64,000 nucleotides of DNA from an uncultured Actinomycetota bacterium (GTDB taxonomy: Bacteria > Actinomycetota > Actinomycetes > JAFAQI01), in contig CAVYQE010000002.1 of NCBI GenBank assembly GCA_963770565.1, positions 256,001 to 320,000 of the forward strand, given 5' to 3'. Under the pieces are notes generated by a model. It saw only the letters and a program-made list of their open reading frames with translations. It did not search any database and was not told the DNA's origin. Shown in pieces: positions 2,414 to 61,504 of the stretch. The first letter of the stretch is position 1, and the number at the start of each line of letters is the position of its first letter. Made by a program: the position numbers and the translations under genes.

Positions 2414-2754
2414 GCCTCTGCGTTTTCTCCCGCATGCTCGCCCATCGGGGGCAACGCGGCGACGAACGGGTGGTCCTTGTCGATCTTGCCGACCTTGGAC
2501 GCCCCGCCCGGCGAGCCGATGTCGTCGAAGAACTCGACGTTGGCCTTGTAGTAGTCCTTCCACTGCTCGGGCGTGTCGTCTTCGTAGAAGATCGCCTCAA
2601 CGGGACAGACCGGCTCGCAGGCTCCGCAGTCGACGCACTCGTCGGGGTGGATATAGAGCATGCGGGCGCCCTCGTAGATGCAGTCGACCGGGCATTCCTC
2701 GATGCATGACTTGTCGAGCAAATCCACGCACGGCTCGGCGATCACGTACGTCAC
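2410..2754 (-). CDS. fdxA: 7Fe ferredoxin
   Basis: MTYVIAEPCVDLLDKSCIEECPVDCIY...CVDCGACEPVCP. Confidence 0.96.
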   Translation of the reverse strand: MTYVIAEPCVDLLDKSCIEECPVDCIYEGARMLYIHPDECVDCGACEPVCPVEAIFYEDDTPEQWKDYYKANVEFFDDIGSPGGASKVGKIDKDHPFVAALPPMGEHAGENAEA

Positions 2755-2809
2755 TGTTGCAATCCTCCTCGGGGGCTGCCGCTGTCCCTTCTAGTATCGC
2801 GATCACCCG

Positions 2810-3811: not shown

Positions 3812-3846
3812 GAGGCTGGCTGGCTCTCCATTCGCTCCACCAGGGT

Positions 3847-4422
3847 CTAGTGGCCGTCGGGGGTGACTCCTTCGAGTGAGGTGTAGTTAGCGACCGATCC
3901 AGGATCCGCAACGCCGCTGTCGTTGGGGGCGACGGCGTTGTCGCTCACGTCCAGGTAGCAGGTGTTCCCGACCGGACCGCAGATCATCGGAACGTCGACG
4001 TCGAGTTTCGCCGGCACGAGACCGGCCGGCAAGGTGAACGCGATCGTGCCTGATGTGCCGCTCTTGATCGCGCCACGAAGGTGGACGATGCCCTGCGCGT
4101 CGACCGCATACGCGGCCGGCCGCTCGACGAGGTCGCCGTAGTTCGTCCAGCCGTTCTCCAGAGTGACTGCGTGCCACTTCAGCGGCGGCAGTGTCTTTGC
4201 CTGCGTCGCGGTGGGCACCGCACTGAGCGTGGATTCCTTGATCTGGGCGCCTGTCACGGTGTTGGCCTTCAGCCGGTTTCCCGAGATCGAGTGCTTCTTG
4301 ATGGTGTTGCCGTTGATCAGGTGGCTCGCTTCGCGCCCCGCGGCAGGTGCGGCAAGGCCGACAACGAGGCCACCGGCGGCGAGCAGAAGCGCCGACGCCG
4401 CAGTCAAACGATGGGTACGCAT
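3847..4422 (-). CDS. Secreted protein with a phage tail-fibre-like C-terminal beta domain
   Basis: Signal peptide ending APAAG; GGAG RBS; C-terminal GIVHLRGAI...FTLPAG motif. Confidence 0.7.
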   Translation of the reverse strand: MRTHRLTAASALLLAAGGLVVGLAAPAAGREASHLINGNTIKKHSISGNRLKANTVTGAQIKESTLSAVPTATQAKTLPPLKWHAVTLENGWTNYGDLVERPAAYAVDAQGIVHLRGAIKSGTSGTIAFTLPAGLVPAKLDVDVPMICGPVGNTCYLDVSDNAVAPNDSGVADPGSVANYTSLEGVTPDGH

Positions 4423-4444
4423 GAGTGCTCCCCCAGCTCAGCGA

Positions 4445-5101
4445 ATGGATGGACGGACGGACGCTACCCACGGCCCGACAACTCGGTGGTCGAACGTTGC
4501 ACCACTGCTCGGCCTGTTGTTCATCGTGCTCGTGGTCGGATCGGTCGCGTTCGGCAATACGCCGAACACCAGCAAGTCACCCGCCGCGGTGCTGGCCTTC
4601 TACAACGCCAACCACGGTCGCGAATACACCTCTGCCTTTCTTGCCGCGCCCGCGGTGGTGATCGGGCTGTTCTGGTTCGCCTATCTGCGGAACTGGCTGC
4701 AGCGTGGGGACGTGAATGAGCGATGGGGCTCGATCGCGTTCGTCGGTGGCATCTTGTTCGCCGTCGTCGGTGGTATCGCCGTCGGCATCGAGCTCGCCCT
4801 CGTCGACACCCCGAAGTACCTCACTCCGGACACCGCGGCGGCGTTGAACTTCCTCGAGTCAGACGTGCCGTTCATCATCTCGTCGATGGCCTTCGGCGTC
4901 ATGGCGATCGCCACGGGCATCGCGGCGCTGAAGAGCCAGTACCTGCCGACCTGGCTGGGCTGGCTGAGCCTCGTGCTCGGCATCATTGCGGTGCTGCCGA
5001 TCGGCGACTTCTTCGCGCTGCCGGGCATCGGCGTGTGGGTGCTTCTCGTCGCGGGAGTGATGTGGTTCCGCAAGGACCCCGAAGGTGTGCTCGCTTCCTA
5101 G
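4445..5101 (+). CDS. Multi-pass membrane protein (DUF4386-like)
   Basis: About 6 hydrophobic segments and an LPTWLGWLS motif; start uncertain (4421 or 4445). Confidence 0.7.
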   Translation: MDGRTDATHGPTTRWSNVAPLLGLLFIVLVVGSVAFGNTPNTSKSPAAVLAFYNANHGREYTSAFLAAPAVVIGLFWFAYLRNWLQRGDVNERWGSIAFVGGILFAVVGGIAVGIELALVDTPKYLTPDTAAALNFLESDVPFIISSMAFGVMAIATGIAALKSQYLPTWLGWLSLVLGIIAVLPIGDFFALPGIGVWVLLVAGVMWFRKDPEGVLAS

Positions 5102-5118
5102 CGAGCGTCCAACCCGGC

Positions 5119-6144
5119 CTAGGAGGCTGCCGGCACGAGGTCGAGCTGCCACTCCGACCAGTGCTCCATGAGCTCGAAGCCGAGCGCGACGTTCACCGCG
5201 ACCATGTAGCTGTTCTCGTCGGCGTTCCAGGTGTTGAGATAGCGCACTTCCGGATGGAGCGCACGGAGCTGCCGCAGGTTGGCGATCTTCAGCAGCAGCC
5301 CGAGCCGGTGGCCGCGATGATCTGACCGCACGACCGTGTCCCACTGGTATCCGACCGTCGCCCCGCCGCACGGCAGCCCCATGCTGGTGAAGCCGACCAG
5401 CGTGCCGCTGTCGTCGTGGCGGGCGGCGACCACGAGTTGCTCGCGACGTCGATCGATCAGCGACTGCTCGTGCGCCCGGTAGCGGTCGGCGCCCCATCGC
5501 TCGGGCTCGAGCTGCAGGTCGCCCTGTGGGGGGTCGGTGCTCATCAGGACTCGAAGGTCCGCCATCTGCGGGACCAGTTCGGCCGGGGTGTGGCGACCCC
5601 ACGCGACGGTCGAGTAGCCGGTCGCGGCGGCCTGCGCGTCGGCCCAGAGCTCGGCGTACCGCTCCTCGAACGGTCCGGCCAGGTCGAGCCGGCGACGAGC
5701 CTCGCTGGTCTTGCGCACCGCGCCGAGCGACTCGGCAAAGGACTCACCGGCCGTTTGCTGCTGACCCTCGGCCGCGCGCGGGATCTCGAACAGGACGGTA
5801 CGCCGTCCGGACCCGGCCAGGTCCTGGAGCATCGCGGCGAGGGCGGCTCGGCCGTAGCCGCGGCGGCGGTGTTCGGGATGCACTCGCAGGTCGACGGTCG
5901 CGAGGCTCAGGTTGTCGTACACAGGCATTCGGGCGAGCCCGGCGACGACCGCGGTCCCCGCCACGACGCCGAGGTGCAGGGCGATGTCCTCGTCGCCGAC
6001 CCGGCCGTTGAGGACCGGGCGGAACTCGTCGATCGGGTCGACCGGCAGCGCGACGAAGTCCGCGGCAAGGCTCGCCGCGGACACCGCATGCCAGTCACGC
6101 AGGCCGGCGTCGTCCCTGACCCGGGACATCACGAGACCGCTCAC
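5119..6144 (-). CDS. Tandem-domain GNAT acetyltransferase
   Basis: Two acetyl-CoA motifs, VHPEHRRRGYG and DHRGHRLG, plus TWNADENSYMVAVNVALGF. Confidence 0.88.
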   Translation of the reverse strand: MSGLVMSRVRDDAGLRDWHAVSAASLAADFVALPVDPIDEFRPVLNGRVGDEDIALHLGVVAGTAVVAGLARMPVYDNLSLATVDLRVHPEHRRRGYGRAALAAMLQDLAGSGRRTVLFEIPRAAEGQQQTAGESFAESLGAVRKTSEARRRLDLAGPFEERYAELWADAQAAATGYSTVAWGRHTPAELVPQMADLRVLMSTDPPQGDLQLEPERWGADRYRAHEQSLIDRRREQLVVAARHDDSGTLVGFTSMGLPCGGATVGYQWDTVVRSDHRGHRLGLLLKIANLRQLRALHPEVRYLNTWNADENSYMVAVNVALGFELMEHWSEWQLDLVPAAS

Positions 6145-6229
6145 GTGACCGTGCTTAGCAGGTCTTTACGCGACCCCGCCACCCGATATCAGGTGGCCGC
6201 ACCACGACGCCGATCGGTAACGTCGAACC

Positions 6230-7156
6230 GTGAGCGAGGAACGCCGTGGCACCGGCTTCGGCGTCGCGGCGTACCTGATCTGGGGGTTGTTCCCGCTCTT
6301 CTTCCCGTTGCTCGAACCGTCCGGCGCGATCGAGATCCTGGCCCACCGGGTGGTCTGGTCGCTGGTCGTCGTCCTGGTCGTCCTGCTGGTGTCGGGCAAC
6401 GCCTGGCGCCGGGTGCCGAAGGCGGGCCGGCCGCTCGGTTTGCTGACCCTCGCCGCGGTCCTGATCGCGGTCAACTGGGGCGTCTACATCTGGGGCGTCA
6501 ACCACGGGCACGTCGTCGAGACGTCGCTTGGCTACTTCGTCAACCCGCTCGTGACGGTCGCGCTGAGCGTGCTGGTCCTGCACGAGCGGCTGCATCGCTA
6601 CCAGTGGGTCGCGGTCGGCATCGCCGCGGCCGGCGTCGTGGTGCTGACGATCCAGGCCGGCCGGCCGCCGTGGATCGCGCTGATCCTCGCCTGCACCTTC
6701 GGCACCTACGGATTGATCAAGAAGGTCGTCGGCGTCGAGCCGGCCGCCGGCCTCGCGGTCGAGACCGCAGTGCTTGCACCGTTCGCGATCGGCTATCTGC
6801 TCGTGCTCGGCGGCCACGGACAGAGCACGTTCACCGCGAACGGGTCAGGTCACGCGCTTCTGCTGGTCGCGTTGGGACCGGTCACGGCGGTGCCGTTGAT
6901 GATGTTCGCCGCAGCCTCGTCGCGGGTGCCGCTGTCGCGGATGGGGCTGATGCAGTACCTCACCCCGACCATCCAGTTCGTGATCGGCGTGGCGGTCCGG
7001 CACGAGCCGTTGCCGGCCCTGCGGCTGATCGGCTTCCTCACGGTGTGGGTCGCGCTCGCGATCTTCACCATCGACGGGGCAACCCGGCTCCGATCCCCGC
7101 ACGCTGCGGGTGAGCGGGTCATGGTCGCCGCGGCAGTGCCCGACCCAGTTCCCTAG
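6230..7156 (+). CDS. rarD: EamA/DMT family transporter RarD
   Basis: AYLIWGLFP, EILAHRVVWS, ETSLGYFVNPL and QYLTPTIQF. Confidence 0.92.
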   Translation: MSEERRGTGFGVAAYLIWGLFPLFFPLLEPSGAIEILAHRVVWSLVVVLVVLLVSGNAWRRVPKAGRPLGLLTLAAVLIAVNWGVYIWGVNHGHVVETSLGYFVNPLVTVALSVLVLHERLHRYQWVAVGIAAAGVVVLTIQAGRPPWIALILACTFGTYGLIKKVVGVEPAAGLAVETAVLAPFAIGYLLVLGGHGQSTFTANGSGHALLLVALGPVTAVPLMMFAAASSRVPLSRMGLMQYLTPTIQFVIGVAVRHEPLPALRLIGFLTVWVALAIFTIDGATRLRSPHAAGERVMVAAAVPDPVP

Positions 7157-7160
7157 CCCG

Positions 7161-7223
7161 AGTTGATCATGGCGAAACGAGCGAAAATCGGCGCGGAAAC
7201 GCCGCTTTTCGCCATGATCAACT
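7161..7223. repeat. REP-like inverted repeat between convergent genes
   Basis: Perfect 17-bp IR: AGTTGATCATGGCGAAA (7161-7177) / TTTCGCCATGATCAACT (7207-7223). Confidence 0.85.
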
Positions 7224-7241
7224 TGTCGTGGCGGGGCGAGG

Positions 7242-8216
7242 CTACGAGCCGGAGGCGGATGCGCCGACCCCGGCCAGCCGGGCGTTGTCGATCACCAGGG
7301 CGGCCGGGCCATCGACCAGACGCAGGGTCGACAGCGCGGTCTCGCCGAACGCGTTCTTCACCGCACTCGACAGCGCGATCATCCCGATCACCGCGCCACC
7401 GTGACCCTTGAGCGGCATCGAGAGGAAGGTCGCCATCCCGCGGTCGTCCTCGTCACCGAGCAGGCCACTCGGGTCGGCGAGCCGCAGCTCGAGATCGGCG
7501 ACCGAGATCGACTGCCCCGACACCGCACCGAGCGCGTCGACCGCCGCGTTGAGCATCCCGGAGTACTGCACCTGCGAGGTCTCCTGCGACACCGCGACGT
7601 ACGCCGTGCGCTCTTCCAGCAGCAGCACCGACGCCAGGTCGTACTCGACGAAGCGCCGAAGCACCTCGAGCACGCCGGCGACGGTCTCCTCGAAGCCGTG
7701 GGTGGTCGCGGCGAGCGAGGTCACCTCGGCGGCAACTGAGGTCTCGAACAGCTTGCGGTCCAACAGGTCGCACACCCGCGACAGCACGTCGTCGTCGCTC
7801 AGCTCGACCGGATCGGCCCGCATCAGCTTGCGGCCCTTCAACGCGGCGGTGGCCGCGTCGACGACCTCGTGCACGGCGGCCACCAGCTGCGGTGCCTCGA
7901 AGTCCTTGGTGAAGTAGCGCTCGGCGCCGGTCTGCACCCCCCAGTAGCGGTCACTGGCCGCGTCGAGCGAGGTCAGCAGGATGATCGGGATGTCCGCGGT
8001 CTGCCAGTCGTCCTTGAGCAGCCGCGCGGCGACGTACCCGGAGACCCGGGGCATCTGCACATCGAGCACCACCACGTCGGGCATCGTCCGGAAGACCTGC
8101 TGGACGGTCGAGACGCCGTCTTCGGCAAGGACGATGTCGAACCCTTCCTTGGTCAGCACAGACGTCAAGATGCGGCGCAGCGTCGGGCTGTCGTCGGCAA
8201 TGACCACGGTCGGCAT
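7242..8216 (-). CDS. Response regulator with REC and GAF-like domains and no recognisable output domain
   Basis: REC motifs ADDS, LDVQMP, LLTS, TK; C-terminus has the GAF signature SMPLKG...IGMIALS...LVIDNARL. Confidence 0.85.
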   Translation of the reverse strand: MPTVVIADDSPTLRRILTSVLTKEGFDIVLAEDGVSTVQQVFRTMPDVVVLDVQMPRVSGYVAARLLKDDWQTADIPIILLTSLDAASDRYWGVQTGAERYFTKDFEAPQLVAAVHEVVDAATAALKGRKLMRADPVELSDDDVLSRVCDLLDRKLFETSVAAEVTSLAATTHGFEETVAGVLEVLRRFVEYDLASVLLLEERTAYVAVSQETSQVQYSGMLNAAVDALGAVSGQSISVADLELRLADPSGLLGDEDDRGMATFLSMPLKGHGGAVIGMIALSSAVKNAFGETALSTLRLVDGPAALVIDNARLAGVGASASGS

Positions 8217-8227
8217 AACTGTCTCCT

Positions 8228-10399
8228 CTAACGTCCGACGAGACGGCGAACCGTCTCGACGAGCTGATCCTGGTCGAACTCGGTCTTGAGCAGGTATGCG
8301 CTGGCCCCAGCGTCGAGCCCTGCCCGCTGGTCGTCTTCGCTCACCCGGCTCGTCATGATGACTACTGGCACATGCTCCCAGCCCCGGGTCCGCCGGATGG
8401 TGCGGGTGAGGTCGTAGCCGTCCATGCCCGGCATCTCCACGTCGGAGAGGACCAGGTCGGCCGGCTCGTCACTCAGTCTGGCCGCGCCGTCGGTGCCGTC
8501 CACGGCCGTGATGACGTCGTACCCTGCGCCTTCGAGGATCGCACGTTCCAGCTCGCGGACTCCGACCGAGTCCTCGACAACGAGCACCCGGGCGCGCCGC
8601 AGCGCCGGCTCAGTGGCATCGATCGGCGACAGCAACGACGAGTACGCCGGCAACGCGCGCTGGCTGCTGTCGACGGTGAGCTCGCGGAGGTCGACGAGGC
8701 AGACGACGCTTCCGTCGCCGTCGATTGTCGCGCCGCTGATGATCGGCGGGCGGCCGAGGAACGCGCCGAGGTCCTTGACCACGAGCTCGCGCTCGCCGTC
8801 GAGCGCGTCGACGGCCCACGCGACCTGACGATCGCCTTGGCGAACGACGACTGCGGCTTGGGGCGAGGTGTCGTTGCTGTCGACGCCGAGCGCGCGACCG
8901 AGGTCGAGCAACGGAAGCGTCTCGCCATGACGGACCACTACCGGGTTGCCGGCCAGGGCGTGGACGACCGCGTTCTTCAACGACAGCGACTCGACGATTC
9001 CTGGGACCGGCAACGCGAACCGCTCGGAGCCGACCCTGGCGATCAAGCAGCGCAGGACGCCGAGGGTGACCGGCAGCGTCACGCTGAAGGTGCTGCCCTC
9101 CCCCGCCGCGGACCGCAGATCGACCAGGCCGCCGAGACCCTCGACCGCGGTCCGTACGACGTCGAGGCCGATGCCGCGACCCGAGGCTTCGGTGACCTCG
9201 GTGCTGGTCGAGAAGCCGGGAAGGAACAGGACGTTGTGCAGCGCCGGCCCGGTCACGGTCGAGTCGGCCGGCAGAACGCCTCGGCCGATGGCCTGGACCC
9301 GGAGGTCGTCGTCGTCGATCCCGACGCCGTCGTCGGTGACCTCGATGACCACGGTCCCGCCGGCCGCGCGAGCGGTCACGGTCACCGTGGAGTGCGGCGG
9401 CTTGCCGGCCGCGACCCGCTCGGCCGGTGACTCGCAGCCGTGGTCGACCGCGTTGACGACGAGGTGCTTCAGCGCGTCTGACACGCCGTCGAGCACCTGC
9501 TTGTCGAGCTCGACCTCCTGGCCGAGCATGACCAGCCGGACATCCTTGCCCGACGCGGTCGCCAGGTCGCGGACCACCCTGGGCAGCCCGGCGACGACCC
9601 GGCGGACCGGGACCATTGCGAGGCCCATCGCGCCGTCGCGCACCTGCGCGAGCCGGCCCTGGGCATCGTCGGCGAGCTCATGCAGGTCACGCGACGCCGC
9701 GATCATCTGGTCGTGGGATGCCAGCAGCCGCAACATGGCCTGGTTGGCCTCGCTCGCGCCCTCGAGCGACGGCAGCGCGTCCCGTAGCTCGCGCAGCCAG
9801 TGGGAGGTGTCGGCGACGATCGCGTCGATCGCTCCGCTCGCGCGCTCGAGCCGGCGGGAGTCGAGCTCGGCTTCGCCGACGACGTCGATCAGCTCGTAGA
9901 CCTTGGCGGTCGTCACCCGGACCGAGTCGACGCCTCGGCGCGGGGATTCCTCGACCGGCTCGTCGTCCTCGCCGGCCGGCGGGGTCCAGTGCGGAACGGT
10001 GACTGGTTCCTCGCCGTCGGTAGCCCGCTGCATGGCGTCGGCCAGCGCACTCAGGTGCTCGAGCGGGACCGGATCGGTGACACCGGGCAGCGCGCCGAGA
10101 ATGCCGTCGCAAGAAGCGAGCAGCAGGTCCACCACGTCGCGGCGTACCGGCAGCCGGCCGTCCCGCAAGGCGCCGAGCAGATCCTCCGCGCGGTGGGCGA
10201 CTGCGAGCATCTCGGACAGCCCGAGCATCCGGGCCGAGCCCTTGACCGTGTGTGCGTCGCGGAACAAGCTCACGACGACCTGGCGCGGCGAGGGGTGCTC
10301 CTCGAGCGCGAGCAGCCCAGCCTGCAGCGACGCGACCCGTTCCTCGACCTCGGCGCGGAACGTCGCGAGCAGCTCGGGGTCGTCAGCCCAGCCGGCCAT
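8228..10399 (-). CDS. cheA: Hybrid CheA-like histidine kinase (Hpt-HATPase-CheW-REC)
   Basis: Hpt HTVKGSA; N box NAVDHG; DDGVG; FLPGFST; GRGIGL; CheW domain; C-terminal REC (EDS, DVEMP). Confidence 0.95.
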   Translation of the reverse strand: MAGWADDPELLATFRAEVEERVASLQAGLLALEEHPSPRQVVVSLFRDAHTVKGSARMLGLSEMLAVAHRAEDLLGALRDGRLPVRRDVVDLLLASCDGILGALPGVTDPVPLEHLSALADAMQRATDGEEPVTVPHWTPPAGEDDEPVEESPRRGVDSVRVTTAKVYELIDVVGEAELDSRRLERASGAIDAIVADTSHWLRELRDALPSLEGASEANQAMLRLLASHDQMIAASRDLHELADDAQGRLAQVRDGAMGLAMVPVRRVVAGLPRVVRDLATASGKDVRLVMLGQEVELDKQVLDGVSDALKHLVVNAVDHGCESPAERVAAGKPPHSTVTVTARAAGGTVVIEVTDDGVGIDDDDLRVQAIGRGVLPADSTVTGPALHNVLFLPGFSTSTEVTEASGRGIGLDVVRTAVEGLGGLVDLRSAAGEGSTFSVTLPVTLGVLRCLIARVGSERFALPVPGIVESLSLKNAVVHALAGNPVVVRHGETLPLLDLGRALGVDSNDTSPQAAVVVRQGDRQVAWAVDALDGERELVVKDLGAFLGRPPIISGATIDGDGSVVCLVDLRELTVDSSQRALPAYSSLLSPIDATEPALRRARVLVVEDSVGVRELERAILEGAGYDVITAVDGTDGAARLSDEPADLVLSDVEMPGMDGYDLTRTIRRTRGWEHVPVVIMTSRVSEDDQRAGLDAGASAYLLKTEFDQDQLVETVRRLVGR

Positions 10400-14036: not shown

Positions 14037-14603
14037 CTACGCCGAGCGTCGGCCCCTCGGCAGCGCGTCCCGCATCCGCAGCACGGCGGTCACGTCCAGC
14101 ACGGCGATCGGGCCGTCCTCGCGCGGCACCTGCCCGCTGAGCAGGCTGGGTCCACCCGGTGCACTCGCGGGCGGGAAGCCGGCGACCCCCGTCAGGGGCG
14201 TCGTACCTTCCACCGCGTCGACCACCATGCCGACCGCGATCCCGTCACTGGTCAAGACGATCAGCCGGGCGGTGGAGCCGAGTTCGGCGGCCGGAGCGCC
14301 CAGCAGCGGGCGCAGGTCGAGGACGGGCAGGATCCGGCCACGCCAGTTCGCGACGCCGGAGAGCCACTCCGGCAGGCCCGGCACCCGGGTGATCACCGGC
14401 ACCCGGCCGACCTCGGCGATCGAGGAGAGCTCGATCGCGAACCGGCCGGTGCCGAGCAGGATCAGGATGGCGTCGGTGTCGACGGCGGCTTCGGCCGGGT
14501 CGGCGGCGGCCTCCGGGGCCGATTGTCCCGCGCCGTTGGCGGCTGCCGGGATCGTCGCGGCCGGCGCCTCGTCAGGCGCGGTCGCAACCTGCGAATCGGT
14601 CAC
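14037..14603 (-). CDS. cheW: CheW scaffold protein
   Basis: [27 protein letters not shown] and GMVVDAV; GTG overlaps the upstream stop (GTGA). Confidence 0.92.
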
Positions 14604-15040
14604 GTCTGAGGTGTCGGCGCATTCCCTCGTTTGGTGTAGTCCGACTTGATCGCCCGGAAGGTCACGAACACCCCGACCGCGCCGGCGAGGATGCCGAGGA
14701 AGAGCAGCGCGTTGCCCACCACGACCACCCCGGGGTCCACCGGCAGCTTGCCGACGAAGACGACATCGCCGCCCGGGGCGACCAGCAGCAACGCTCCGAC
14801 CGCCACGAACCAGCCGACGATCGGCGCGATCGCGCCGGTGAGAGTGCGGGTCGCGAGGCCGGCGAACGACGCGGCGGCGACATTTCCGACCACGGCGAGC
14901 ACAGCGGCAAGGCCTTCGACCCCGCCCGGCAGGCGCAACGGCACCAGGAACGACTCGATCACGCCCAGCACGACGCCGATCGCGGCCAGCACGACGTAGG
15001 TAATGAGCAGTAGCCAACGCTCGGATTGCTGCGTGGCCAC
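14600..15040 (-). CDS. Membrane protein (DUF6113-like, usual mshB neighbour)
   Basis: Four TM segments with the motif WFVAVG...PGGDVV; synteny with mshB. Confidence 0.7.
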   Translation of the reverse strand: MATQQSERWLLLITYVVLAAIGVVLGVIESFLVPLRLPGGVEGLAAVLAVVGNVAAASFAGLATRTLTGAIAPIVGWFVAVGALLLVAPGGDVVFVGKLPVDPGVVVVGNALLFLGILAGAVGVFVTFRAIKSDYTKRGNAPTPQT

Positions 15041-17051: not shown

Positions 17052-17200
17052 TGAGCCTCCGGTTCGGTGTCTCTATGCGGTGATTTCGACTAGATACCGG
17101 AGTGTGTCACCGGATCCGGGCTGGTAGACCGGACGGGACCAGGATTCACCCGGTCGGGCTAATCAGATCAAGCCGGTTCCTGCCGATTGGCCCAGCCGCG

Positions 17201-18094
17201 CTACCCGACCCCCGCAAACAGGTCGGTTTCGCGTCCGCCATCGGCCGCGAGCCGGCCGCGGGTGAGCCGGTAGTGCTCGATGCCGAACGCGCCCTGGCCG
17301 ACATCGTTGGACAGGGCGAAGAAGTGGCCGTCGACCGCTACCTGGGTGGGGTAGGCGCGCAGCGCCGCCATCTTGTGGTCGAGGAACTCCCGGGCGTCCA
17401 CGGCGGTGGTGACCTGGTCGTCCGGCACTCCCATCGCCAGGTCCTCCGGCGACGTCACGCCGAACGGCGCTTCCTCGCCCATCTCGCGCAATGCCTCGAA
17501 CGCGATCTGCAGCGTGGACATCGGAACTACCGCCTCGTAGAACTTGGCCGGCGCCCAGGCCTCCCCCGCCGCAGGAAAGCGGTCCGGGTCACCGGCGGCC
17601 CCGAACGCCGCGACCGCGACCCGGTGTGCCTGGATGTGGTCGGGGTGTCCGTAGCCGCCGTTGTCGTCATAGCTCACGACGACCTGCGGGCGCACCTCGC
17701 GAATCACCTGTACGAGTGCCGCGACCGCCTCGTCGAAGTCGGCCTGCCAGAACGACTCCGGCCGATCGTTGGACGGCGTGCCCATCATGCCGGAGTCACG
17801 CCAGCGCCCCGGCCCGCCCAGGAAGCGGTGATCCGTCACACCGAGCGCGGCCATCGCGTCGGCCAGCTCGTTGATCCGGTGCTCGCCGAGCCCGCCTTCT
17901 TTGTCGGCGGCGAGGTGCGCCAGGTCGGGTACGAGGATCTCGCCCTCCTCGCCGAGCGTGCAGGTGACCAGCGTCACCTGAGCACCTTCGGCGGCGTACT
18001 TCGCCATCGTGGCGCCGGTCCCGATTGACTCGTCGTCCGGGTGGGCATGGACGAGCAGGAGGCGGCGGGTCAGCTGACTGTCGGTCGTCGTCAC
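17201..18094 (-). CDS. mshB: GlcNAc-Ins deacetylase (mycothiol biosynthesis)
   Basis: [30 protein letters not shown] and FFALSN. Confidence 0.93.
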
Positions 18095-18476: not shown

Positions 18477-19592
18477 ATGGCTGATCTTCACGGCACCGTC
18501 GACCCGCGGTTCACCGGCGTCCGCGACGCCCTCGCGGAGCAGCTCGACAACGGCGCAGAGCTCGGCGCGTCGATCGTCGTCGACCTCGATGGCCAGACCG
18601 TCGTCGACCTCTGGGGTGGCCTCGCCGAGCCCGGTCGGCCGTGGGTCGAGGACACCATCGTCAATGTCTGGTCGACGACGAAGACGGTCACCAACCTGGC
18701 CGCGCTGATGCTGGTCGATCGCGGTCAGCTCGACCCGTACGCGCCGGTGTCACGCTATTGGCCGGAGTTCGGCGACAACGGCAAGGACGGCATCGAGGTC
18801 CGTCACGTGTTGTCCCACACCAGCGGTGTCAGTGGGTGGGCGCAGCCGTTCGCCGTCGAGGACATGTACGACTGGGAGCTCTCGACCGCGCGGCTCGCCG
18901 CCCAAGCACCGTGGTGGGAGCCGGGTACGGCGTCGGGCTACCACGCGCTCAACCAGGGCCACCTGGTCGGCGAAGTCGTCCGGCGGATCACCGGACAGCG
19001 GCTCAAGGACTTCGTCCGCGACGAGATCGCCGGGCCGCTCGGCGCGGACTTCCAGATCGGTTGCTCACCCGCCGACGCCGACCGGGTCGCGCCCGTGATC
19101 CCGCCGCCACCGCTTCCGATCGACCTCGCGAGCCTTGACACGAACAGTCCGATGGTGAAGACGTTCACCGGTCCGTTCGCCGACGCCGCTGCGGCCAACA
19201 CCGACGGCTGGCGGGCGGCCGACATCGGCGCCGCGAACGGACACGGCAACGCCCGCTCGGTAGTCAAGATCCAGTCCGCGGTGGTCAGTGGCAAGCTGCT
19301 CACGGCCGAGACAGCCGACCTGATCTTCGACGTGCAGTCCGACGGGGTCGACCTGGTGCTCGGCGTACCGCTGCGGTTCGGAATCGGCTACGGCCTGCCG
19401 CAGTTCGACACCGTGCCGTACATCCCGGAAGGCAAGATCTGCTTCTGGGGCGGCTGGGGCGGTTCGCTGATCATCCTCGACTTCGACCGCAACCTCACGA
19501 TCGGCTACATGATGAACAAGATGGGCGCCGGCATCGTCGGCAGCGAACGAGGCGAGGTCTACCTCCGCGCGATCTACGCCGCCGTGACCTAA
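18477..19592 (+). CDS. Serine hydrolase (beta-lactamase-like esterase family)
   Basis: SxxK motif (WSTTK), LSHTSG, GYHA and WGGWGGS. Confidence 0.92.
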
Positions 19593-54365: not shown

Positions 54366-56321
54366 CTAGGCGTCGGCCGCGCCGCGCGTGCCCACCCGGT
54401 CGGCAAGTGCAGCGGGGTCGGTCGTCGGCGCGTCGCACACGAAGCCCCTGCAGACATACGCCGCGCCGGGCGGCCGGTCGGCGAGCAGTGGCGAGTCACC
54501 CCCGGTCACGACAACGGCGCCGGGTGAAGTCGCGCGCCGGGCAATCGCGGCCAGCTCCGGTGCCTCGACGACGGCGATCTCCAGTGGTCCCGCGAGGAGC
54601 GCTTCGGCTGCGGCGGCCGACCATCCGGCGAAGCGCGGGAAACGCTCGATCAGCGGCGCGGCCTTGCCGAGCGCGACCACGGCGGTGTCGCGAAGGTCGG
54701 CGCGACCGGTCAGGGCCGACGCGGTCAGCATTGCGGCAACGACCGACGAGAAGCCGGACGGGGTCGCACCGTCGGTCGGGTCCTGTGGCCGGCGAACCAG
54801 CCGCTGCGCGTCGTCGGCGGTATCGAAGAAGCCATTGGAGCCGTCGTCGAAGTGCACGGTCGCGACCTCGATCAGTTCCTCGGCGAGGTCGAGCCACCGG
54901 CGTTCGCCGGTCGCCTGGTGCAGGGCGAGCAATCCCTCGCCGAGATCGCCGTAGTCCTCGAGCACACCGATCGGATCGCCGACCACGCCGTTGCGCGACA
55001 CTCGCCGCAACCTGCCGTCGACGACGTGCCGCTCAGCGAGGAACTCGGCGCATCTAGAGGCCGCGTCGATGAAGTCGTCCCGGCCGAACAACACGCCGAT
55101 CTCTGCGAGCGAGGCGATCGCCAGCCCGTTCCACGCGGTGACCACCTTGTCGTCACGAGCCGGTGGAACGCGCTGCGCCCTGACCGCCAGCAGCCGCGCG
55201 CGTTCCGCGCGGTACTCGTCCGGATCAGTAGGGTCGCTCAGCAGCTGAAGCACCGACCGACCGTGTTCGAAGGTGCCCTCCGGGGTCACGGTGAAGATCG
55301 CCGCCGCCCGTTGGCCCACCTCGTCCGGAGTCCAGACGTAGTAGCGACCCTCATCGCCCTCGCTGTCGGCATCGAGTGAGGAGGCAAAGCCGCCGGACTC
55401 GGTCAACAGGTCGGCGAGCATCCACTCGCAGGTCTCGATCGCCACCCGCCGGCCGAGCTCGGCGGCGCAGAGCCGCCACCAGTGCGCGTAGACCCGGGCG
55501 AGCAAAGCGCTGTCGTACAACATCTTCTCGAAGTGCGGCACGACCCAGTGCGCGTCGACCGAATAGCGGGCGAAGCCGCCGCCGAGCTGGTCGTACATCC
55601 CGCCGCGCGCCATTCGCTCGCAGGTGATGTCGACGATCTCGGCGCTGCGACTCGAGCCGGATCGAGCCGCGTGCCGCAGCAAGAACTCGAGCACCATCGA
55701 CGGCGGGAACTGTGGAGCGCCGCCGAAGCCGCCGGTCACGTCGTTGTGACGGTCCGCCAACGCGGACGCCGCAGCATCGAGACCGGTCGCGGTCACCCCG
55801 GAGCCGGACAGCGGGGACGCTGCGCGCTCGTTCAACTCCGCCACGATGTGCGCGCCTGATTTCTCGATCTCATCCCGACGGGTCGTCCACGCCTCGACGA
55901 TCGACTCGAGCAGCCGCCGGAACGACGGCATGCCGGGCCGGTTGTGCGGCGGGAAGTAGGTGCCGCAGAAGAACGGGTCGCCGGTCGGCGTGAGGAAGCA
56001 GGTCATCGGCCAGCCGCCGCTCCCGGTCAGCGCCTGAGTCGCCTCCATGTAGACCGCATCGACGTCCGGGCGTTCCTCCCGGTCCACCTTGATACAGACA
56101 AAGTGCTCGTTGAGATATGTCGCCGTCGCCTCGTCCTCGAACGACTCGTGCGCCATCACGTGACACCAATGGCAACTGGAATAACCAATACTGAGCAGTA
56201 TTGGCACGTTCCGGCAGCGAGCTTCAGCAAATGCTTCGTCGCCCCACGGCCACCAGTCAACGGGATTGTCCTTGTGCTGCAACAAATATGGGCTCGTCGA
56301 GGACGCGAGGCGGTTGGCCAT
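54366..56321 (-). CDS. YyaL/SPATA20-like thioredoxin-domain protein; the first ~55 codons appear to be supplied by the inserted element
   Basis: NRL..SPYLLQH, CHWCHVM, GGWP and PHFEKMLYD; the 5' codons are visibly AT3-rich compared with the rest of the gene. Confidence 0.93.
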
Positions 56322-56378
56322 GTAGTCGACTCTAGGTCCTACGCGAACGAGTACCGAGACGTGTCGGATCGTGCCGAA

Positions 56379-56404
56379 AGACATACGGGACAGACACAGG
56401 AAAC
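56379..56404 (+). repeat. Degenerate 13-bp tandem repeat (putative integrase arm site, left)
   Basis: AGACATACGGGAC-AGACACAGGAAAC resembles the repeat at 59068-59094. Confidence 0.65.
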
Positions 56405-56542
56405 CAGTGACCAAATCTGTCTAAGGGTCGCGTTAGACATGTGAGACCTCGGCGCCCCCCGCGTGTTCGTGACTGCGAACCAGTGGCAGTCTTTGTCCAG
56501 TCTGGGCTTGTACTCCTTTCTCTATCTATGTAGATTTACGAC

Positions 56543-56848
56543 ATGAGACCAGTGCGAGTTACCTCTGCAGCCCTGAGCGTCATGGCGTGTCTGGCAGCTG
56601 GGTCCGAGGAATGGCGCCATGGGTACGAGCTGTTGGCCGAGACCGGGCTGAAGTCCGGATCGCTGTACCCGATCCTCATGCGCATGGCCGAGCGCGAATT
56701 GTTAGAGGCGGCTTGGGAGCCTGATCCGCCGGCAGGACGTCCACCTCGACATCTGTACCGGCTGACGCCATCTGGGCGTGAATGGTTGCAGGCCGCCAGT
56801 GCTGTTCGCGAACGGCGCACTGTCGCGCGGCTCGAGGCGGCAACATGA
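56543..56848 (+). CDS. PadR family regulator
   Basis: HGYEL, GSLYPILMRM and RPPRHLYRLT; TCTA-N6-TAGA palindrome at 56521-56534 upstream. Confidence 0.93.
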   Translation: MRPVRVTSAALSVMACLAAGSEEWRHGYELLAETGLKSGSLYPILMRMAERELLEAAWEPDPPAGRPPRHLYRLTPSGREWLQAASAVRERRTVARLEAAT

Positions 56849-57732
56849 TCGTGGTGATCGCCTCGCTGGTACTCGCCGCGGCCGCCGTCGTTGTGACGCG
56901 TCACGGCGCCAACGATGGTGTCGCTGCGCTGGTGATGCGAGAGCTGGCCGGACCGGTACCGTCCGCGGAACGGACGTGGATCTCGGCCATGCTCGCCGAG
57001 CACGACTCAATCGACGATGCCCGTCTTCGGCGAGCGTTTGCTCGTGGTTGTCTTCGCGCGATGCTGTTCTCGCGTTGCGAGCCTGATCGGACGGCCACCC
57101 TGATCGGTGGGGTGATCGGCGTCGCTGCCCTAGGCGCTGCGGGTCTTGCGGCCGCTGGGTTGGTTCGCTATCCCGGCCTGCGCGAGGGTTGGTTGTGGAT
57201 TGTTGTTGCGACGGTGTTCGTGTTCGCCGTCGCTGGCTATGCAGTGATCGGCTTGTGGCTGAGCCAGCTCGGCTCTGCGGCCACACGGAGGATCGGCCTG
57301 ATGGCTGCCGTGCCTGCGGTCGTCATCGGATGGTGGGCCGGACACTCCAACGGCGTCGTCTCCTCGGCAACCCTCATCCTGCTCGCGATTCCGGTTGCGC
57401 TCGTTGGCGCGGGCGTGGCGAGGAGTGAGCGCCACACTGACGAAGCCGGGGTCGCTGTCGGCTGCGCCGCCGTGGCGGCCGGCCTTTTCACCTTTGTTGC
57501 CTACGCCTCGACGACATTCATTACCGGTGGCGGGCAAGCGACCGCGTCATCGCTGCAGCAATTCACACAGAGCGGCGCGTCCAGCTACCGGGCGTGGGCG
57601 ATCGGTGACCACCTGGACGGAGCGGTCTTCTTACTTCTCTTCGTGCCGCTCGTCGCGGGCGCTCTCGGCATGCTGTCCGCACACCTCGCCGCGCCGAGTT
57701 CCTCATCCGCCGTTAGCCAAACTCTCGAGTAG
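56845..57732 (+). CDS. PadR-associated multi-pass membrane protein
   Basis: ATGA overlap with PadR; WISAMLAE...FARGC motif followed by about 7 TM helices. Confidence 0.8.
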   Translation: MIVVIASLVLAAAAVVVTRHGANDGVAALVMRELAGPVPSAERTWISAMLAEHDSIDDARLRRAFARGCLRAMLFSRCEPDRTATLIGGVIGVAALGAAGLAAAGLVRYPGLREGWLWIVVATVFVFAVAGYAVIGLWLSQLGSAATRRIGLMAAVPAVVIGWWAGHSNGVVSSATLILLAIPVALVGAGVARSERHTDEAGVAVGCAAVAAGLFTFVAYASTTFITGGGQATASSLQQFTQSGASSYRAWAIGDHLDGAVFLLLFVPLVAGALGMLSAHLAAPSSSSAVSQTLE

Positions 57733-57849
57733 GCGATGAACTCGATCGTGCCACGGGACAGCGGCAGCGCGTCGAGCCGACGACTATCGGAACCTCTAAC
57801 TAGGAATAGCAAATCGCTAGACTGCCTTATAAGTTGCTAGATTCGCTTC

Positions 57850-59022
57850 ATGGATGCAATCCGCAATCCCTATTCGCCCGGCGCAGGCCGAGCCCCGGCC
57901 GCGCTGGTCGGACGGGACAGCGAGCTACGCACCTGGCACGTTGCGGTCGAACGCGTTCAGGCAGGCCGTTCTGCACAGTCGATCGTTCTCTATGGGCTAC
58001 GCGGAGTCGGCAAGACCGTGCTGTTGTCGGTCTTCCAGCGGGAGGCGATCGCACGCGGGTGGATCGTCGCGCAGGTCGAGGGCGGCGCTGGCAAGGGCCT
58101 TCGCGACGCCCTCGGCGACGCCCTGCACGCACCGCTGTCGGATCTGGCCCGACCGAGCGCCGGCAAGCGGTTGCTGCAGGCATTGAAGACGGCGTTGAGC
58201 TTCCGCGCTTCGGTGGACCCAACCGGATCGTGGAGCTTTGGACTCGATCTATCTGAAAGCCTCGGCGGCGGCGCCGACACCGGGTCGCTCGAAACCGACC
58301 TAGCGAAGTTGGTTCGCGATCTGTCCGCGGCAGCCAGCGAGGAATCCCTCGGACTAGCCATCCTCATCGATGAAGCGCAAGACCTCACCTCCGAAGAGCT
58401 GACGGCCGTGTGCGCCGCCGCGCACCAAGCAAGCCAGAACGAGTGGCCATGCCTGTTCGCGCTCGCCGGTTTACCGAGCCTGCCCCGAGTCCTCGCCGAG
58501 GCGAAGTCATACGCAGAGCGGCTGTTTACGTACCACCACATCGAACAACTCGCACCGGCCCTGGCGCGCGAAGCACTCGTCGAACCTGCGGCCGGCGAGG
58601 GTGCCGGCTGGGACGACGACGCAGTAACACTCATCCTTGGTGAGGCCGCCGGCTACCCATACTTCATTCAGCAGTTCGGCCAAGAAACCTGGGACGAGGC
58701 GCCAGGATCACCGATCACCATCGCCGACGCGCGTGTTGGCGCCGCACGGGGACGAGCGGCGCTCGACGACGGCTTCTTTCGAGCACGGTGGGACCGGGCC
58801 ACCCGGGCCGAACAGCAATATCTGCGCGCAGTCGCTGACGACGGCGACGACGGCGCCAGTTCCAGCGAGGTCGCACGCAGACTGGGCAGACGACCGACCA
58901 GCCTCGGCCCAGCCCGAGCCAGCCTGATCGCGAAGGGACTCGTCTACGCCCCGGAACACGGCGTGATCGCATTCACAGTGCCGGGGATGGCCCACTTCAT
59001 CCAGCGGCAACCGGACACGTAG
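57850..59022 (+). CDS. AAA+ ATP-binding protein with a C-terminal winged HTH
   Basis: NPYSPGAG; Walker A GLRGVGKT; Walker B ILIDEAQ; GYPYFIQ; RASLIAKGLVY. Confidence 0.88.
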   Translation: MDAIRNPYSPGAGRAPAALVGRDSELRTWHVAVERVQAGRSAQSIVLYGLRGVGKTVLLSVFQREAIARGWIVAQVEGGAGKGLRDALGDALHAPLSDLARPSAGKRLLQALKTALSFRASVDPTGSWSFGLDLSESLGGGADTGSLETDLAKLVRDLSAAASEESLGLAILIDEAQDLTSEELTAVCAAAHQASQNEWPCLFALAGLPSLPRVLAEAKSYAERLFTYHHIEQLAPALAREALVEPAAGEGAGWDDDAVTLILGEAAGYPYFIQQFGQETWDEAPGSPITIADARVGAARGRAALDDGFFRARWDRATRAEQQYLRAVADDGDDGASSSEVARRLGRRPTSLGPARASLIAKGLVYAPEHGVIAFTVPGMAHFIQRQPDT

Positions 59023-59067
59023 CGGCGGATTGTCGAGCCGTTGTGAAGGTCGACCTCAGCGTCCTCG

Positions 59068-59094
59068 CAGACATACGAAACAGACATACGAAAC
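59068..59094 (+). repeat. Perfect 13-bp tandem repeat (putative integrase arm site, right)
   Basis: CAGACATACGAAA x2, about 90 bp from the right junction. Confidence 0.75.
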
Positions 59095-59160
59095 CCGGGA
59101 AGCACCAACCCAGAGCGGTCAGATTCGTCACGACTTGAGCGTGTACGGCAGCTCTCTTCG

Positions 59161-59346
59161 CTACTGCACGCTCGGAATGCTGACGTGGCACCAGTGGCAT
59201 GCGGCGTACCCGACGCTGAGTAGGACCGGCACCTCGCGGCGGCGGGCCTCGTCGAACGCTTCGTCGCACCACGGCCACCAGTCGACCGGATTGTCCTTGT
59301 GCTGCAATAGATACGGGCTCGCCGAGGTCGCGAGACGGTTAGCCAC
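59161..59346 (-). pseudogene. Truncated native 5' fragment of the yyaL-like gene
   Basis: [26 protein letters not shown]...CHWCHV, then SIPSVQ and a stop; GAGGGAG RBS; host-like GC3 codons. Confidence 0.88.
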
Positions 59347-59395
59347 CTGCTCGCTCCCTCGGCATCGGACAGATTCACGACGACCGTACCTGTTG

Positions 59396-61504
59396 CTAGG
59401 TCGGGGCGGTCGTCGAGGAGCTTGCCGCGGTCAGGTCGTAGACGGTTGTCCCGCCGATCGTGGTTGCGGTGTAGTGCGACTCGACCCAGGCGGTGATCTG
59501 GCTCGCGTCGTCGCTGCCACCCTGGGTGGATCCACCCGGGCCGCCGAAGCCACCTCCGGCAATGAAGTAGTGGATGTCGCCGGCGCGCACGAACGCCTCG
59601 AACTGCGCAAGCGACGGCGCCTGGTCGGTGCCGTTGAACCCGCCGATGGCCATCACCGGCTCGTCCACTGCGAGTTGATAACCCGACGCGTTCTCGGCAC
59701 CGATCGTTGCGGCAACCCAGCGGTACGACGACGCGTCCGCCTTCAGCGCCGTGGCCAACGCGGAGCTCACGCTGCCGGCATTCAGCAACCCGCCGCCGCC
59801 CTGTCGGCCGCCGACACCTCCCGCGCCGGGCTGACCGAAGGGCGTTCCACCCTGACCTTGCGCGCCGAAGCCGGGCACACCCAAACCTTGGCCGGTGAAG
59901 CCCCGGCCGCCGAGACCCTGGCCACCAGGTCCGTTGGTGCCGCCGGGCAGCCCGCCTCGCCCACCCTGACCGGGCGTCCCGAACACGGTCGTCACGGCCG
60001 GGCCGGCGGACGGGATCGCCCCGGTGTGACTGGTCGCCGCGGTGTCGAGGGAGTAGGCAACCGGGCCGGCCAGCGCGACCACCAGCGCACCTGTCGCGAT
60101 CAATCGGCCGGCACCGAATCGACGTACCCGATCGAGTGGCAGGAGCACGGCGACGGCGGTGAGCAGGCCGACCACCAGGATCGCGCTGCGAAGCCACGGA
60201 TGCCACGCCGGGCTGCGGGCGAGCAGATGGTGTGACCACACAGCGGACACCGCCACCGTCACCGCGATCACTTCGCGCGACCACCATCCGTCGCGCGCCT
60301 GCCACAGGCTCACGGCGCCGATTCCGACGAGTGCGCCGATGGCCGGCGCCAGTGCGACCGTGTAGTAGGGGTGGATGATGCCCTTGCCGAAGGAGAAGAC
60401 CAGCCCGGTCACCAGCAGCCAGCTCACCCACAGCAATACCTGACCGCGCCGGCCCGATGCCTCCGGCGTCCGGCGCAATGCCCACCAGGTCCCGGCCGCC
60501 AGCAACAGCGCAGCGGGAATCAGCCAAGAAACCTGGCCGCCCATATCGGCGCCGAACAGCCGGGTGATGCCGGTCGCCCCCCACATGCCCGTGCCGCCGC
60601 CACCACCACCGCCGCCGACACTGCCGGTCTCGTTACCGGTGAGCCGGCCGAGCCCGTTGTAGCCGAAAGCCAGCTGCAGGATCGAGTTGTCGGTCGAGCC
60701 GCCGATGTACGGCCGGCTCGACGCCGGTGTCAGCATCACCGCTGCCACCCACCAGCCGGCCGCGACGACGACCGCGGCACCTGCGGCGAGGAGCTGGACG
60801 ATCCGCCGGCGCAGCGTCGTCTTCGCATAGAGGAGGTAGACCAGGCCGAAGCCGGGCACGAGGAAGGCTTGCAGCATCTTGGTGATGAAGCCGAAGCCGA
60901 CCAGCGATCCGGCGAGCAGCAGCCATCGGGTGCTGGCCGACTCGAGCGCCCGGGTCACGGCGTACGCCGCACCGACGAGCAGCAGGACGAGCAACGCGTC
61001 AGGATTGTTGAAGCGGAACATCAGCGTGGCGACCGGGGTGGTCGCCAAGACCAGCCCGGCAATCAGTCCCGCCGTCGCCGAGAAGTGTCGTCGCACGGTG
61101 GCGTAGAGCAGGCCGACCGCGGCAACACCTTCCAGCGCCTGCGGGACCAAGATGCTCCACGCGTTGACGCCGAACAATCGCGCCGACAGATCCATCACCC
61201 ACAGCGACGCCGGCGGCTTGTCGACGGTGATGAAGTTCGACGAGTCGAACGACCCGAAGAAGAACGACTTCCAGCTGGTCGACCCGGCTTGCACGGCGGC
61301 CGAGTAGAAGCTGTTCGCCCAGCCGGACCCGCCGAGGTCCCACTGGTAGAGCAGCGCGGTCGAGGCGAGCAGCGCGATCAGCGCGGGTCGCGCCCAAGCC
61401 GGGTCGTCCGCGCGGCCGCGAAGCAGTCGTCGAGCCCACGCCCGGTCTCCGGAGGAGTCGACGGCGTCCGCCGGGGCAACGTGATCGATGGTGGCGGCGG
61501 TCAT
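59396..61504 (-). CDS. GT39/ArnT-like (PMT-type) integral membrane glycosyltransferase
   Basis: [25 protein letters not shown], a Gly-rich loop and GGFNGTD. Confidence 0.92.

Follow-up and report, generated by a model that had tools for sequence, protein, structure and literature searches.

A probable decayed, integrase-less island at the 5′ end of yyaL in an uncultured actinomycete, of or sister to a yyaL-targeting family

We analysed a stretch of 64,000 nucleotides (the window) from an uncultured Actinomycetota bacterium (contig CAVYQE010000002.1 of assembly GCA_963770565.1, positions 256,001 to 320,000), in which the start of the yyaL/DUF255 gene is present twice. Positions 56158-59182, between the two copies, are read as the decayed, integrase-less remnant of a site-specific integrative island which belonged to, or was sister to, a yyaL-targeting family, and we put the probability of this reading at about 0.82. 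The family itself is best explained as a set of actinobacterial islands of 2-10 kb, whose 468-residue tyrosine recombinase would act at TGCCACTGGTGCCACG, the sequence of yyaL that encodes its CHWCH motif. The evidence consists of the duplication and its junction, a step in the G+C content of third codon positions (GC3), arm repeats, and a layout homologous to that of integrase-bearing islands; the duplication of a gene start is thereby explained as the scar of a specific mobile-element family.

Two copies of the yyaL start and their junction

An earlier note on this DNA had claimed that the first ~55 codons of yyaL occur twice without indels, 3,025 bp apart and both running to CHWCHV, and the repeat search and the alignment agreed on this. 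The single direct repeat from the search (56158-56320 and 59183-59345; 163 nt, 79% identical, gap-free) had a spacing of 3025, and in the pairwise alignment the homology of the two copies opened at their start codons, ATG at 56321 and GTG at 59346 on the minus strand, and stopped directly after ...TGCCA(Y)TGGTG(Y)CACGT, which encodes CHWCHV. Past this junction, whose far position is 59183, the full gene reads MAHESFED and the shorter copy (the stub) reads SIPSVQ*, that is, it meets a stop six codons on. The profile PF03190 (Thioredox_DsbH/DUF255) matched the full gene with E 6e-77 over profile positions 2-162 of 163, and residues 3-55 of the stub with E 2e-26. The stub is preceded, 50 bp upstream, by the end of a PMT_2 glycosyltransferase gene. 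The island is flanked by direct repeats derived from its target, a trait of tyrosine-recombinase-type islands; the two core copies within them differ at 2/17 bases. The features of the duplication, with the open reading frame (ORF) and other evidence for each, are the following.

54366..56321, minus strand: yyaL/DUF255 gene, intact, 651 residues (ORF, PF03190, GC3 step at codon 55)
56158..56321, minus strand: replacement for the yyaL 5′ end brought by the island, codons 1-55 as far as the GT of codon 55 (repeat, alignment, GC3)
56158..56174, minus strand: core copy A, TGCCATTGGTGTCACGT (CHWCHV), at which the homology with copy B ends
59183..59199, minus strand: core copy B, TGCCACTGGTGCCACGT, the stub-side core
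59161..59346, minus strand: displaced host yyaL 5′ end, a 61-residue ORF with GTG start, codons 1-55 and SIPSVQ* (ORF, alignment, PF03190, GC3)

A misassembly, which the note had named as a way for its idea to fail, has a practically negligible probability. The copies are only 79% identical, too unlike to be confused, and the same stub, junction and post-junction sequence were found in an independently assembled congener, so that the duplication is not an artefact of assembly. In this congener (G004; genomes and loci are given by our own handles, G000 being the window genome) the stub reads CHWCHV and then SAASV, lies beside the same glycosyltransferase gene, and is followed by ~120 nt of homologous post-junction sequence and then by different genes, the full yyaL being on another contig. 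Another independently assembled congener, G003, also has a stub beside this flanking gene, cut after codon 38, with its yyaL on another contig, and the pattern recurred in complete genomes, e.g. G131, which is one contig.

The composition of the two copies was clearly different. GC3 over codons 1-55 was 0.855 in the stub, consistent with the note's description of the 59346 copy as host-like, and 0.655 in the full gene, which the note had called rich in A/T wobble codons and continuous with the intact gene; the step to 0.89 over the next 145 codons (56-200; difference -0.24) was found at codon 55, and every later 55-codon sliding window had a GC3 of at least 0.764. The copies differ at 24 third positions, of which 15 have A/T in the gene copy and G/C in the stub, and 4 the reverse. 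Since the differences reach codons 51, 53 and 55, any exchange lay within the last few bases of the repeat. The genes of the island had GC3 values of 0.65-0.75 compared with 0.85 in the flanking gene, and a G+C trough of 0.59-0.67 extended across 56000-59500 compared with 0.69-0.74 in the flanks; the composition of the island is foreign, unlike that of its host.

A low GC3 at the start of yyaL was also seen next to integrase genes of the family described below. In the integrase-adjacent yyaL genes (n=70), GC3 was 0.74 over codons 1-55 and 0.92 over codons 56-200 (mean difference -0.18), whereas the difference ranged from -0.12 to +0.06 in 12 relatives of the window's order (families f1 and f2) that have no stub on the yyaL contig; the congeners gave -0.17 (G002), -0.16 (G001), -0.12 (G003) and +0.04 (G004). 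The repeat arm 56158..56321, the integrase-side junction, has a low GC3 like these integrase-adjacent genes. This comparison upheld the claim that the incoming copy is the one joined to the full gene, and yyaL at 54366..56321 is a hybrid, its codons 1-55 having arrived with the island and its codons 56-651 being the host's. The stretch upstream of the gene, from 56322 to about 56409-56497, also lies on the island side, and is common to G002, G003 and G004. Third-position identity among 63 integrase-adjacent genes exceeded the expectation from composition by +0.29 in codons 1-49 and by +0.22 and +0.15 in later codons, an excess that has the expected direction and is too weak to count.

The integrase family at yyaL and its attachment sites

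The note had proposed to look across actinobacterial genomes for short DUF255 fragments with integrases nearby, and this search returned both recurrent stubs and an integrase family. In G027, G033 and G080 a short, conserved N-terminal ORF remnant (...APAGEGEPxKRVLRRASSEEE...) adjoins the yyaL start in divergent orientation, and a search for longer proteins with this remnant gave 197 matches among 415 candidates, most of them of exactly 468 residues and several with PF00589. The query protein of this family, P0003, reached 25.8 bits on PF00589 over profile positions 7-168 of 172 (cut-off 27.1 bits) and 23.1 bits on PF14659, the SAM-like integrase N-domain (cut-off 22.6 bits). By eye it contains GLRLGE, KNHTIHEVPL, NLRHHAAT and LNHY, which we take to be the Arg, Lys, Arg-His and Tyr motifs of tyrosine recombinases. 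A phmmer search of the integrase against the PDB gave nothing significant.

The 468-residue protein was located at 79 loci, with one genome per species (Nocardioides, Marmoricola, Isoptericola, Sinomonas, Cellulosimicrobium and others). At 74/79 loci the yyaL start codon lies at most 400 bp upstream of the integrase gene int and divergent from it, with a median gap of 122 bp; of the remaining loci, L103 and L113 were adjacent by eye, and L082, L092 and L108 had no upstream flank. The adjacent yyaL was full length in 66 loci. In L083, L106 and L110 (~9680-9990) only a stub of 54-55 residues stands next to int, which points to nested or tandem insertions.

Far-end stubs were found within the 10-kb flank in L055, L063, L114, L119 (two stubs), L089 (inverted) and L108, giving islands of ~5.6-9.3 kb. 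In L119 two successive yyaL stubs (17131-17328 and ~18792-18923) follow one island, and together with L083, L106 and L110 this locus is evidence of tandem or nested accretion at the yyaL site. In L089 (~14391-14615) the far-end stub, the conserved end motif and a pair of 13-bp repeats are all on the opposite strand, which suggests an inversion between two attachment-site-related sequences.

All yyaL stubs long enough to include the motif depart from the gene sequence after TGCCACTGGTGCCACG. Stubs that end with TGCCACTGGTGCCA(C/G)(G) and then diverge were seen in L055, L063, L114, L119, L089, L108, L083, L106 and L110, in G131, G397, G004 and G007, and in the window. With such stubs in many unrelated Actinomycetota and the integrase beside yyaL at most loci, the note's proposal that the CHWCH-encoding site is the target was supported. 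In eight loci the next 50 nt after the junction are a conserved island end, ...GACGAAACCGCAGGTCAGAG; in the window, G004, G007 and G397, all of family f1, GAGCGTG stands ~10 nt past the junction. The cores are identical at both ends in L055, L063, L114 and L119.

Only one of the 35 genomes of the window's family, G019, has an integrase of this kind, 106 nt from the yyaL 5′ end; no P0003 homologue was found in the other 34. An origin of the integrase from a phage or plasmid was considered and rejected, as a search of 50,697 phage records gave no match and one of 72,556 plasmid records gave a single distant match (25% identity). No conjugation genes were seen in the four bounded islands. A small conserved ORF (...DDPRxxFLxAxEVMxRYGWGKTKGYxNLKxRxLVPxPVMxHPDRWRxDQLL...) without a Pfam match recurs in the islands, and we read it as resembling an excisionase-type helix-turn-helix protein. 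It occupies the following positions.

L055, 14096-14521
L063, 16551-17204
L083, 7518-7763
L025, 5987-6514

Tandem 13-bp repeats (13-mers) lie close to both ends of the window's island.

56379..56404, plus strand: AGACATACGGGAC AGACACAGGAAAC, a tandem pair of 13-bp units that lies 58-83 nt upstream of the yyaL ATG
59069..59094, plus strand: AGACATACGAAAC x2, a perfect tandem pair of 13-bp units that lies 89-114 nt inward of the far junction

The integrase-side pair matches the far pair at 22/26 bases. The integrase-bearing islands have a tandem pair of AGTGATRCACGAR 46-59 nt from the yyaL ATG, and in L055, L114 and L119 the same strand carries this pair at 123-136 nt inward of the far junction; pairs were present at both ends in L055 and L114 and at the far end only in L119, and in L089 the pair is inverted together with its stub. 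A MAFFT alignment placed the window's 13-mers in register with these AGTGATRCACGAR pairs at both ends, and the bases that follow are similar (ACGAAACCCGGGAAG in the window, ACGAAGCCCCGGAAA in the integrase family). Lambda-type attachment sites are the model for arm-type integrase sites, and the 13-mer pairs are putative sites of this type; the integrase-side pair is possibly also a promoter or operator.

Exact copies of AGACATACGAAAC occur in the genome only at the island's own ends, and single 13-mers with one mismatch (5) were not above control (9). The exact window-type double 13-mer had no match in a metagenome-wide scan, and among the 38 genomes of the order (G000 included) a double 13-mer with up to 3 mismatches was present only in G000, G004 and G413. 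In G413, of another genus of the window's family, it has 2 mismatches and lies ~66-90 nt upstream of yyaL (L127, G413:C71:160700-163724, ~1501-1525), with a divergent ORF nearby that looks like an ArsR-type helix-turn-helix protein by eye and without an adjacent integrase; the window-type island end, or a similar regulatory site, is thus not confined to the genus. In the promoter region of the window's yyaL (56401-56505) the motif AACCAGTG(A/G)C..TCT.TGTC occurs twice, ~77 nt apart, upstream of yyaL in G000 and G004, and only once in G002 and G003, which may reflect a small local duplication.

This arrangement suggests how an island of the family would integrate. The attachment site of its circular form (attP) would consist of a far arm with two tandem 13-mers ~100-135 nt from the core, then the core, and beyond it yyaL codons 1-55 in reverse orientation with their ribosome-binding site and promoter region, the second 13-mer pair and the divergent int gene, so that a replacement coding sequence of 165 nt would sit inside the P arm. 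Recombination with the chromosomal core would leave the host promoter and codons 1-55 as the far-junction stub, and would place host codons 56-651 in frame behind a promoter and codons 1-55 from the island, by which yyaL would stay intact. In the window genome the integrase and most of the original contents would since have been lost or replaced.

The same topology of a stub and a full gene would arise without a site-specific recombinase, from a single Campbell-type crossover with a circle bearing a foreign yyaL 5′ fragment, or from a local duplication followed by an insertion, and the window itself holds no recombinase. We regard this as very improbable, because homologous crossovers would be expected anywhere in the 165 nt and here the exchange fell within the last few bases, the same end point was reached in more than 12 unrelated genomes, and homologous recombination would not be expected to bring 13-mer pairs in register with those of integrase-bearing islands.

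Contents, relatives and present state of the island

Three plus-strand ORFs lie between the yyaL copies, a PadR regulator, a protein without a family match and an AAA_16 ATPase.

56543..56848, plus strand: PadR-family transcriptional regulator, 101 residues (PF03551, E 3.5e-12; GC3 0.65)
56845..57732, plus strand: hydrophobic/membrane protein, ~295 residues, whose ATG overlaps the PadR stop (ATGA); the longest ORF runs from 56782
57850..59022, plus strand: AAA_16 ATPase, 390 residues, the last gene before the far junction (PF13191, E 8e-18)

The Pfam search found no recombinase among these ORFs, and genes for integration and for conjugation are both absent from the island, in agreement with the note's statement that the element encodes no recombinase. 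The hydrophobic protein had no match in Pfam, NCBIfam or PADLOC. The ATPase has a weak C-terminal winged-helix (MarR_2) match, and a homologue with 32% identity takes the same end position in L083. No clear defence system was detected among the island's genes, as PADLOC matched the ATPase only weakly, to SngB (E 0.0016). The genome has one copy of the island. No tRNA and no Rfam family was found in or near it. A sigma-70 consensus scan, which covers actinobacterial promoters poorly, returned no promoter-like site, and a single terminator-like hairpin, within the membrane-protein gene, fell below what shuffling predicts.

The other congeners have no stub. In G001 an ATPase gene 80% identical to the window's is inverted between the same flanking genes; at this locus (L036, G001:C56:14000-21000, 3299-4465) the PadR and membrane-protein genes are absent. 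In G002 ~15 kb of ordinary-looking genes separate yyaL from the flanking gene, and this stretch was rejected as an intact element, since neither integrase nor stub is there. Part of it (L028, G002:C33:40000-59000, ~2400-9000) has a G+C content of 0.62-0.65 compared with 0.68-0.73 in its flanks and several short ORFs without a mobility gene, and may be older island debris.

In the class as a whole, a 55-residue query from the yyaL 5′ end matched 336/401 genomes (these tallies include unpublished genomes), a single yyaL 5′ end being present in 314 of these and two or more in 22. The extra copies were located in 21 of these 22, G396 being left out. In 11 genomes the extra copy was a stub that shares contig and strand with the full gene and lies 0.6-8 kb upstream of it.

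Genomes with a same-contig stub: G000, G027, G030, G033, G080, G090, G131, G255, G277, G292, G397

The second copy is on a different contig in G003, G019, G024, G025, G057, G077 and G395; G379 has two long yyaL copies on different contigs, and in G021 and G350 one frameshifted gene was scored twice. Outside the class tally, in the set of relatives, stubs were also present in G004 and in G007, the latter on the contig of its yyaL gene and 4.5 kb upstream of it. None of the islets of the class survey has an intact integrase. Their genes include a DUF433 + DUF5615/PIN_10 pair, which we read as of toxin-antitoxin type, HTH_3 (Xre-type) regulators, an N6 methylase with specificity domain, an AEP-TOTE helicase, and ThiF + JAB + DUF6602.

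Two islets of the survey deserve a separate description. An 8-kb one, L037 (G397:C45:75500-86500, ~1700-4800), has adjacent DUF6602, Prok-JAB and ThiF (E1-like) genes and Peptidase_M78, a set which to us looks like a ubiquitin-like conjugation conflict system. The other, L038 (6.4 kb; G131:C1:670000-679500, ~1300-7100), has ORFs of 434 and 270 residues closely resembling a gene pair of L055, an IS3-like two-ORF transposase (by eye) and a 734-residue AEP-TOTE primase-helicase protein; its far end keeps the conserved GAAGCCGCAGGTCAGAG motif of the family, and its integrase is gone.

Several observations weigh against the reading of the window's island as a remnant of the yyaL-targeting family. 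No integrase remnant was seen in the window, also on reading 56322-56542, so the link to the integrase family rests on the attachment-site layout and not on a gene, and the PF00589 score of P0003 falls just under the cut-off. The window's 13-mer AGACATACGAAAC is unlike the family's AGTGATRCACGAR, and the window lacks the motif GAAACCGCAGGTCAGAG conserved at far ends, so that a different, as yet unseen relative may have been the original integrase. An empty site, which the note had proposed to seek in relatives, was not recovered in its exact form (glycosyltransferase gene, then intact yyaL) in any of 40 relatives, though an uninterrupted single-copy yyaL is the norm. A low GC3 was found in only 5 of the 10 integrase-less islets elsewhere (G030, G131, G090, G277 and G292; -0.11 to -0.31) and not in G033, G027, G397, G080 and G255 (-0.09 to +0.11), and a few integrase-adjacent genes, e.g. 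L095, L105 and L119, also do without it. Furthermore, several stubs end before CHWCH, at about residues 35-45 in G003, G030, G033, G027 and G080 and at about residues 31-34 in G292, which we attribute, without proof, to later erosion. Finally, the far 13-mer block is identical over 32 nt between G000 and G004 within 641 nt at 73% identity; this suggests constraint and would fit a live site better than a dead one.

The last point also favours a distinctly unlikely alternative, in which the island is still mobile, a non-autonomous cassette (a cis-mobilizable element in the strict sense) with working left and right attachment sites (attL and attR), for which a related island would bring in the integrase that acts in trans. 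Both cores and both 13-mer pairs are retained; the nested or tandem arrangements in L083, L106, L110 and L119 indicate that related islands land beside resident ones, and the integrase at yyaL in G019 that full islands circulate in the window's family. Against it speak the genome, which is 94.9% complete and gave no match to P0003 at E <= 0.01 (15 PF00589 matches were present, all outside the window), and the confinement of exact 13-mer copies to the island's own ends. Its cores have diverged, unlike the identical pairs of L055, L063, L114 and L119, its integrase-side 13-mers have drifted to 22/26 matches with the far pair, and its interior varies among congeners around the same junction.

The note had left open whether the element is a reduced relic or a cassette mobilised in trans, and the evidence favours the first, a relic that kept both attachment-site ends. 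With its cognate integrase missing, its cores 2/17 bases apart, and congeners that share the junction and differ in contents, the island is quite likely an old relic rather than a live cassette. As the cores have drifted and no cognate integrase is present, it is most likely fixed. The matched sequencing runs consisted of soil and rhizosphere metagenome contigs only, with 5-20% of sampled words; compared with 55900-59700, these contigs gave short identical pieces (e.g. 56168-56370 and 56608-57112), none of which bridged a junction, and they are uninformative on excision or a circle. Contig joints that skip 3041-3170 nt (sides of 20-25 letters, 90% likeness) were rejected as signs of excision, being single-copy yyaL genes of other organisms.

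A broader interpretation, which we consider unlikely, is that the yyaL islands are a phylum-wide family of mini-islands with the CHWCH coding sequence as chromosomal attachment site (attB) and a working, synonymously recoded (A/T-wobble) set of codons 1-55 as attP arm, the window's variant, with 13-mers perfectly conserved between two species, being a second specificity group still mobilisable in trans by an unseen integrase. The CHWCH attB would then be present in most Actinomycetota, and the low GC3 would be selected, not a passive foreign mark, either for bendability of attP between the core and the 13-mers or against RecA-mediated loss between attL and attR.

Significance and comparison with known systems

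The interest of the window's island lies mainly in the family it revealed, widespread small actinobacterial islands, and in the tracing of about a dozen islets without an integrase, in other Actinomycetota, to a single integrase clade. The yyaL site is a small hotspot that gathers toxin-antitoxin, restriction and other conflict genes. Because the target is short and nearly invariant and the yyaL 5′ end is so common in the class, the integrase and its attachment sites might serve as a broad-host integration tool for actinobacteria. A 165-nt coding sequence that is also an attP arm would be a clean natural case of overlapping constraints on synonymous sites. In the parts of the literature that were accessible, no paper was found on yyaL/DUF255 as an attachment site or on the 468-residue integrase clade, and a paper that mentions both yyaL and integrase names yyaL only in the gene list of a figure legend; catalogues such as TIGER/Islander (PMC12424338) may list the islands.

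The mechanism resembles that of the SXT/R391 integrative and conjugative elements (ICEs). According to work by Hochhut and Waldor in 1999, the element reportedly supplies a new 5′ end and promoter, and the target gene still works; here, similarly, the incoming DNA would supply yyaL codons 1-55 and the upstream region. Integration of SXT/R391 is carried out by a tyrosine recombinase and takes place at the 5′ end of prfC, a conserved gene of the chromosome (PMC2791158). The yyaL islands differ in host phylum, in their target, which lies inside the CHWCH-coding motif of yyaL, and in a 468-residue integrase at the edge of PF00589. They are also far smaller, 2-10 kb compared with ~100 kb for these ICEs; the four bounded examples showed no conjugation genes, and the window's island has neither integrase nor conjugation genes.

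The integrase-less state of the window's island fits the published definition of cis-mobilizable elements (CIMEs), as far as given in the accessible text (PMC5704250). Like the CIMEs of streptococci it lacks genes for integration and transfer, and tandem or nested arrangements occur in the related loci L083, L106, L110 and L119. Cores and arm-repeat pairs are present at both ends, but the cores differ at 2/17 bases and the integrase-side 13-mers have drifted. The definition of CIMEs comes from Firmicutes, for elements at the 3′ ends of tRNA genes or protein genes, and experiments have shown them to be mobilised; in contrast, mobility of the window's island seems unlikely, as its cores have drifted and the genome has no cognate integrase. 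Since the mechanism matches that of SXT/R391 and the state matches the definition of a CIME, the kind of element is already known. The related yyaL islands are also comparable with the hotspots of defence and toxin-antitoxin islets in carrying such genes, of which the window's island has no clear match to a defence system.

Islands and prophages that bring a replacement for the end of their target (tRNA 3′ ends, icd and others) regenerate the gene with a copy in attP and leave a displaced fragment behind. Unlike in these islands, at yyaL it is the 5′ end that is replaced, including the signals for expression and a coding stretch as long as 165 nt, and the replacement lies between the core and the arm repeats, so that the coding sequence would double as an arm of attP.

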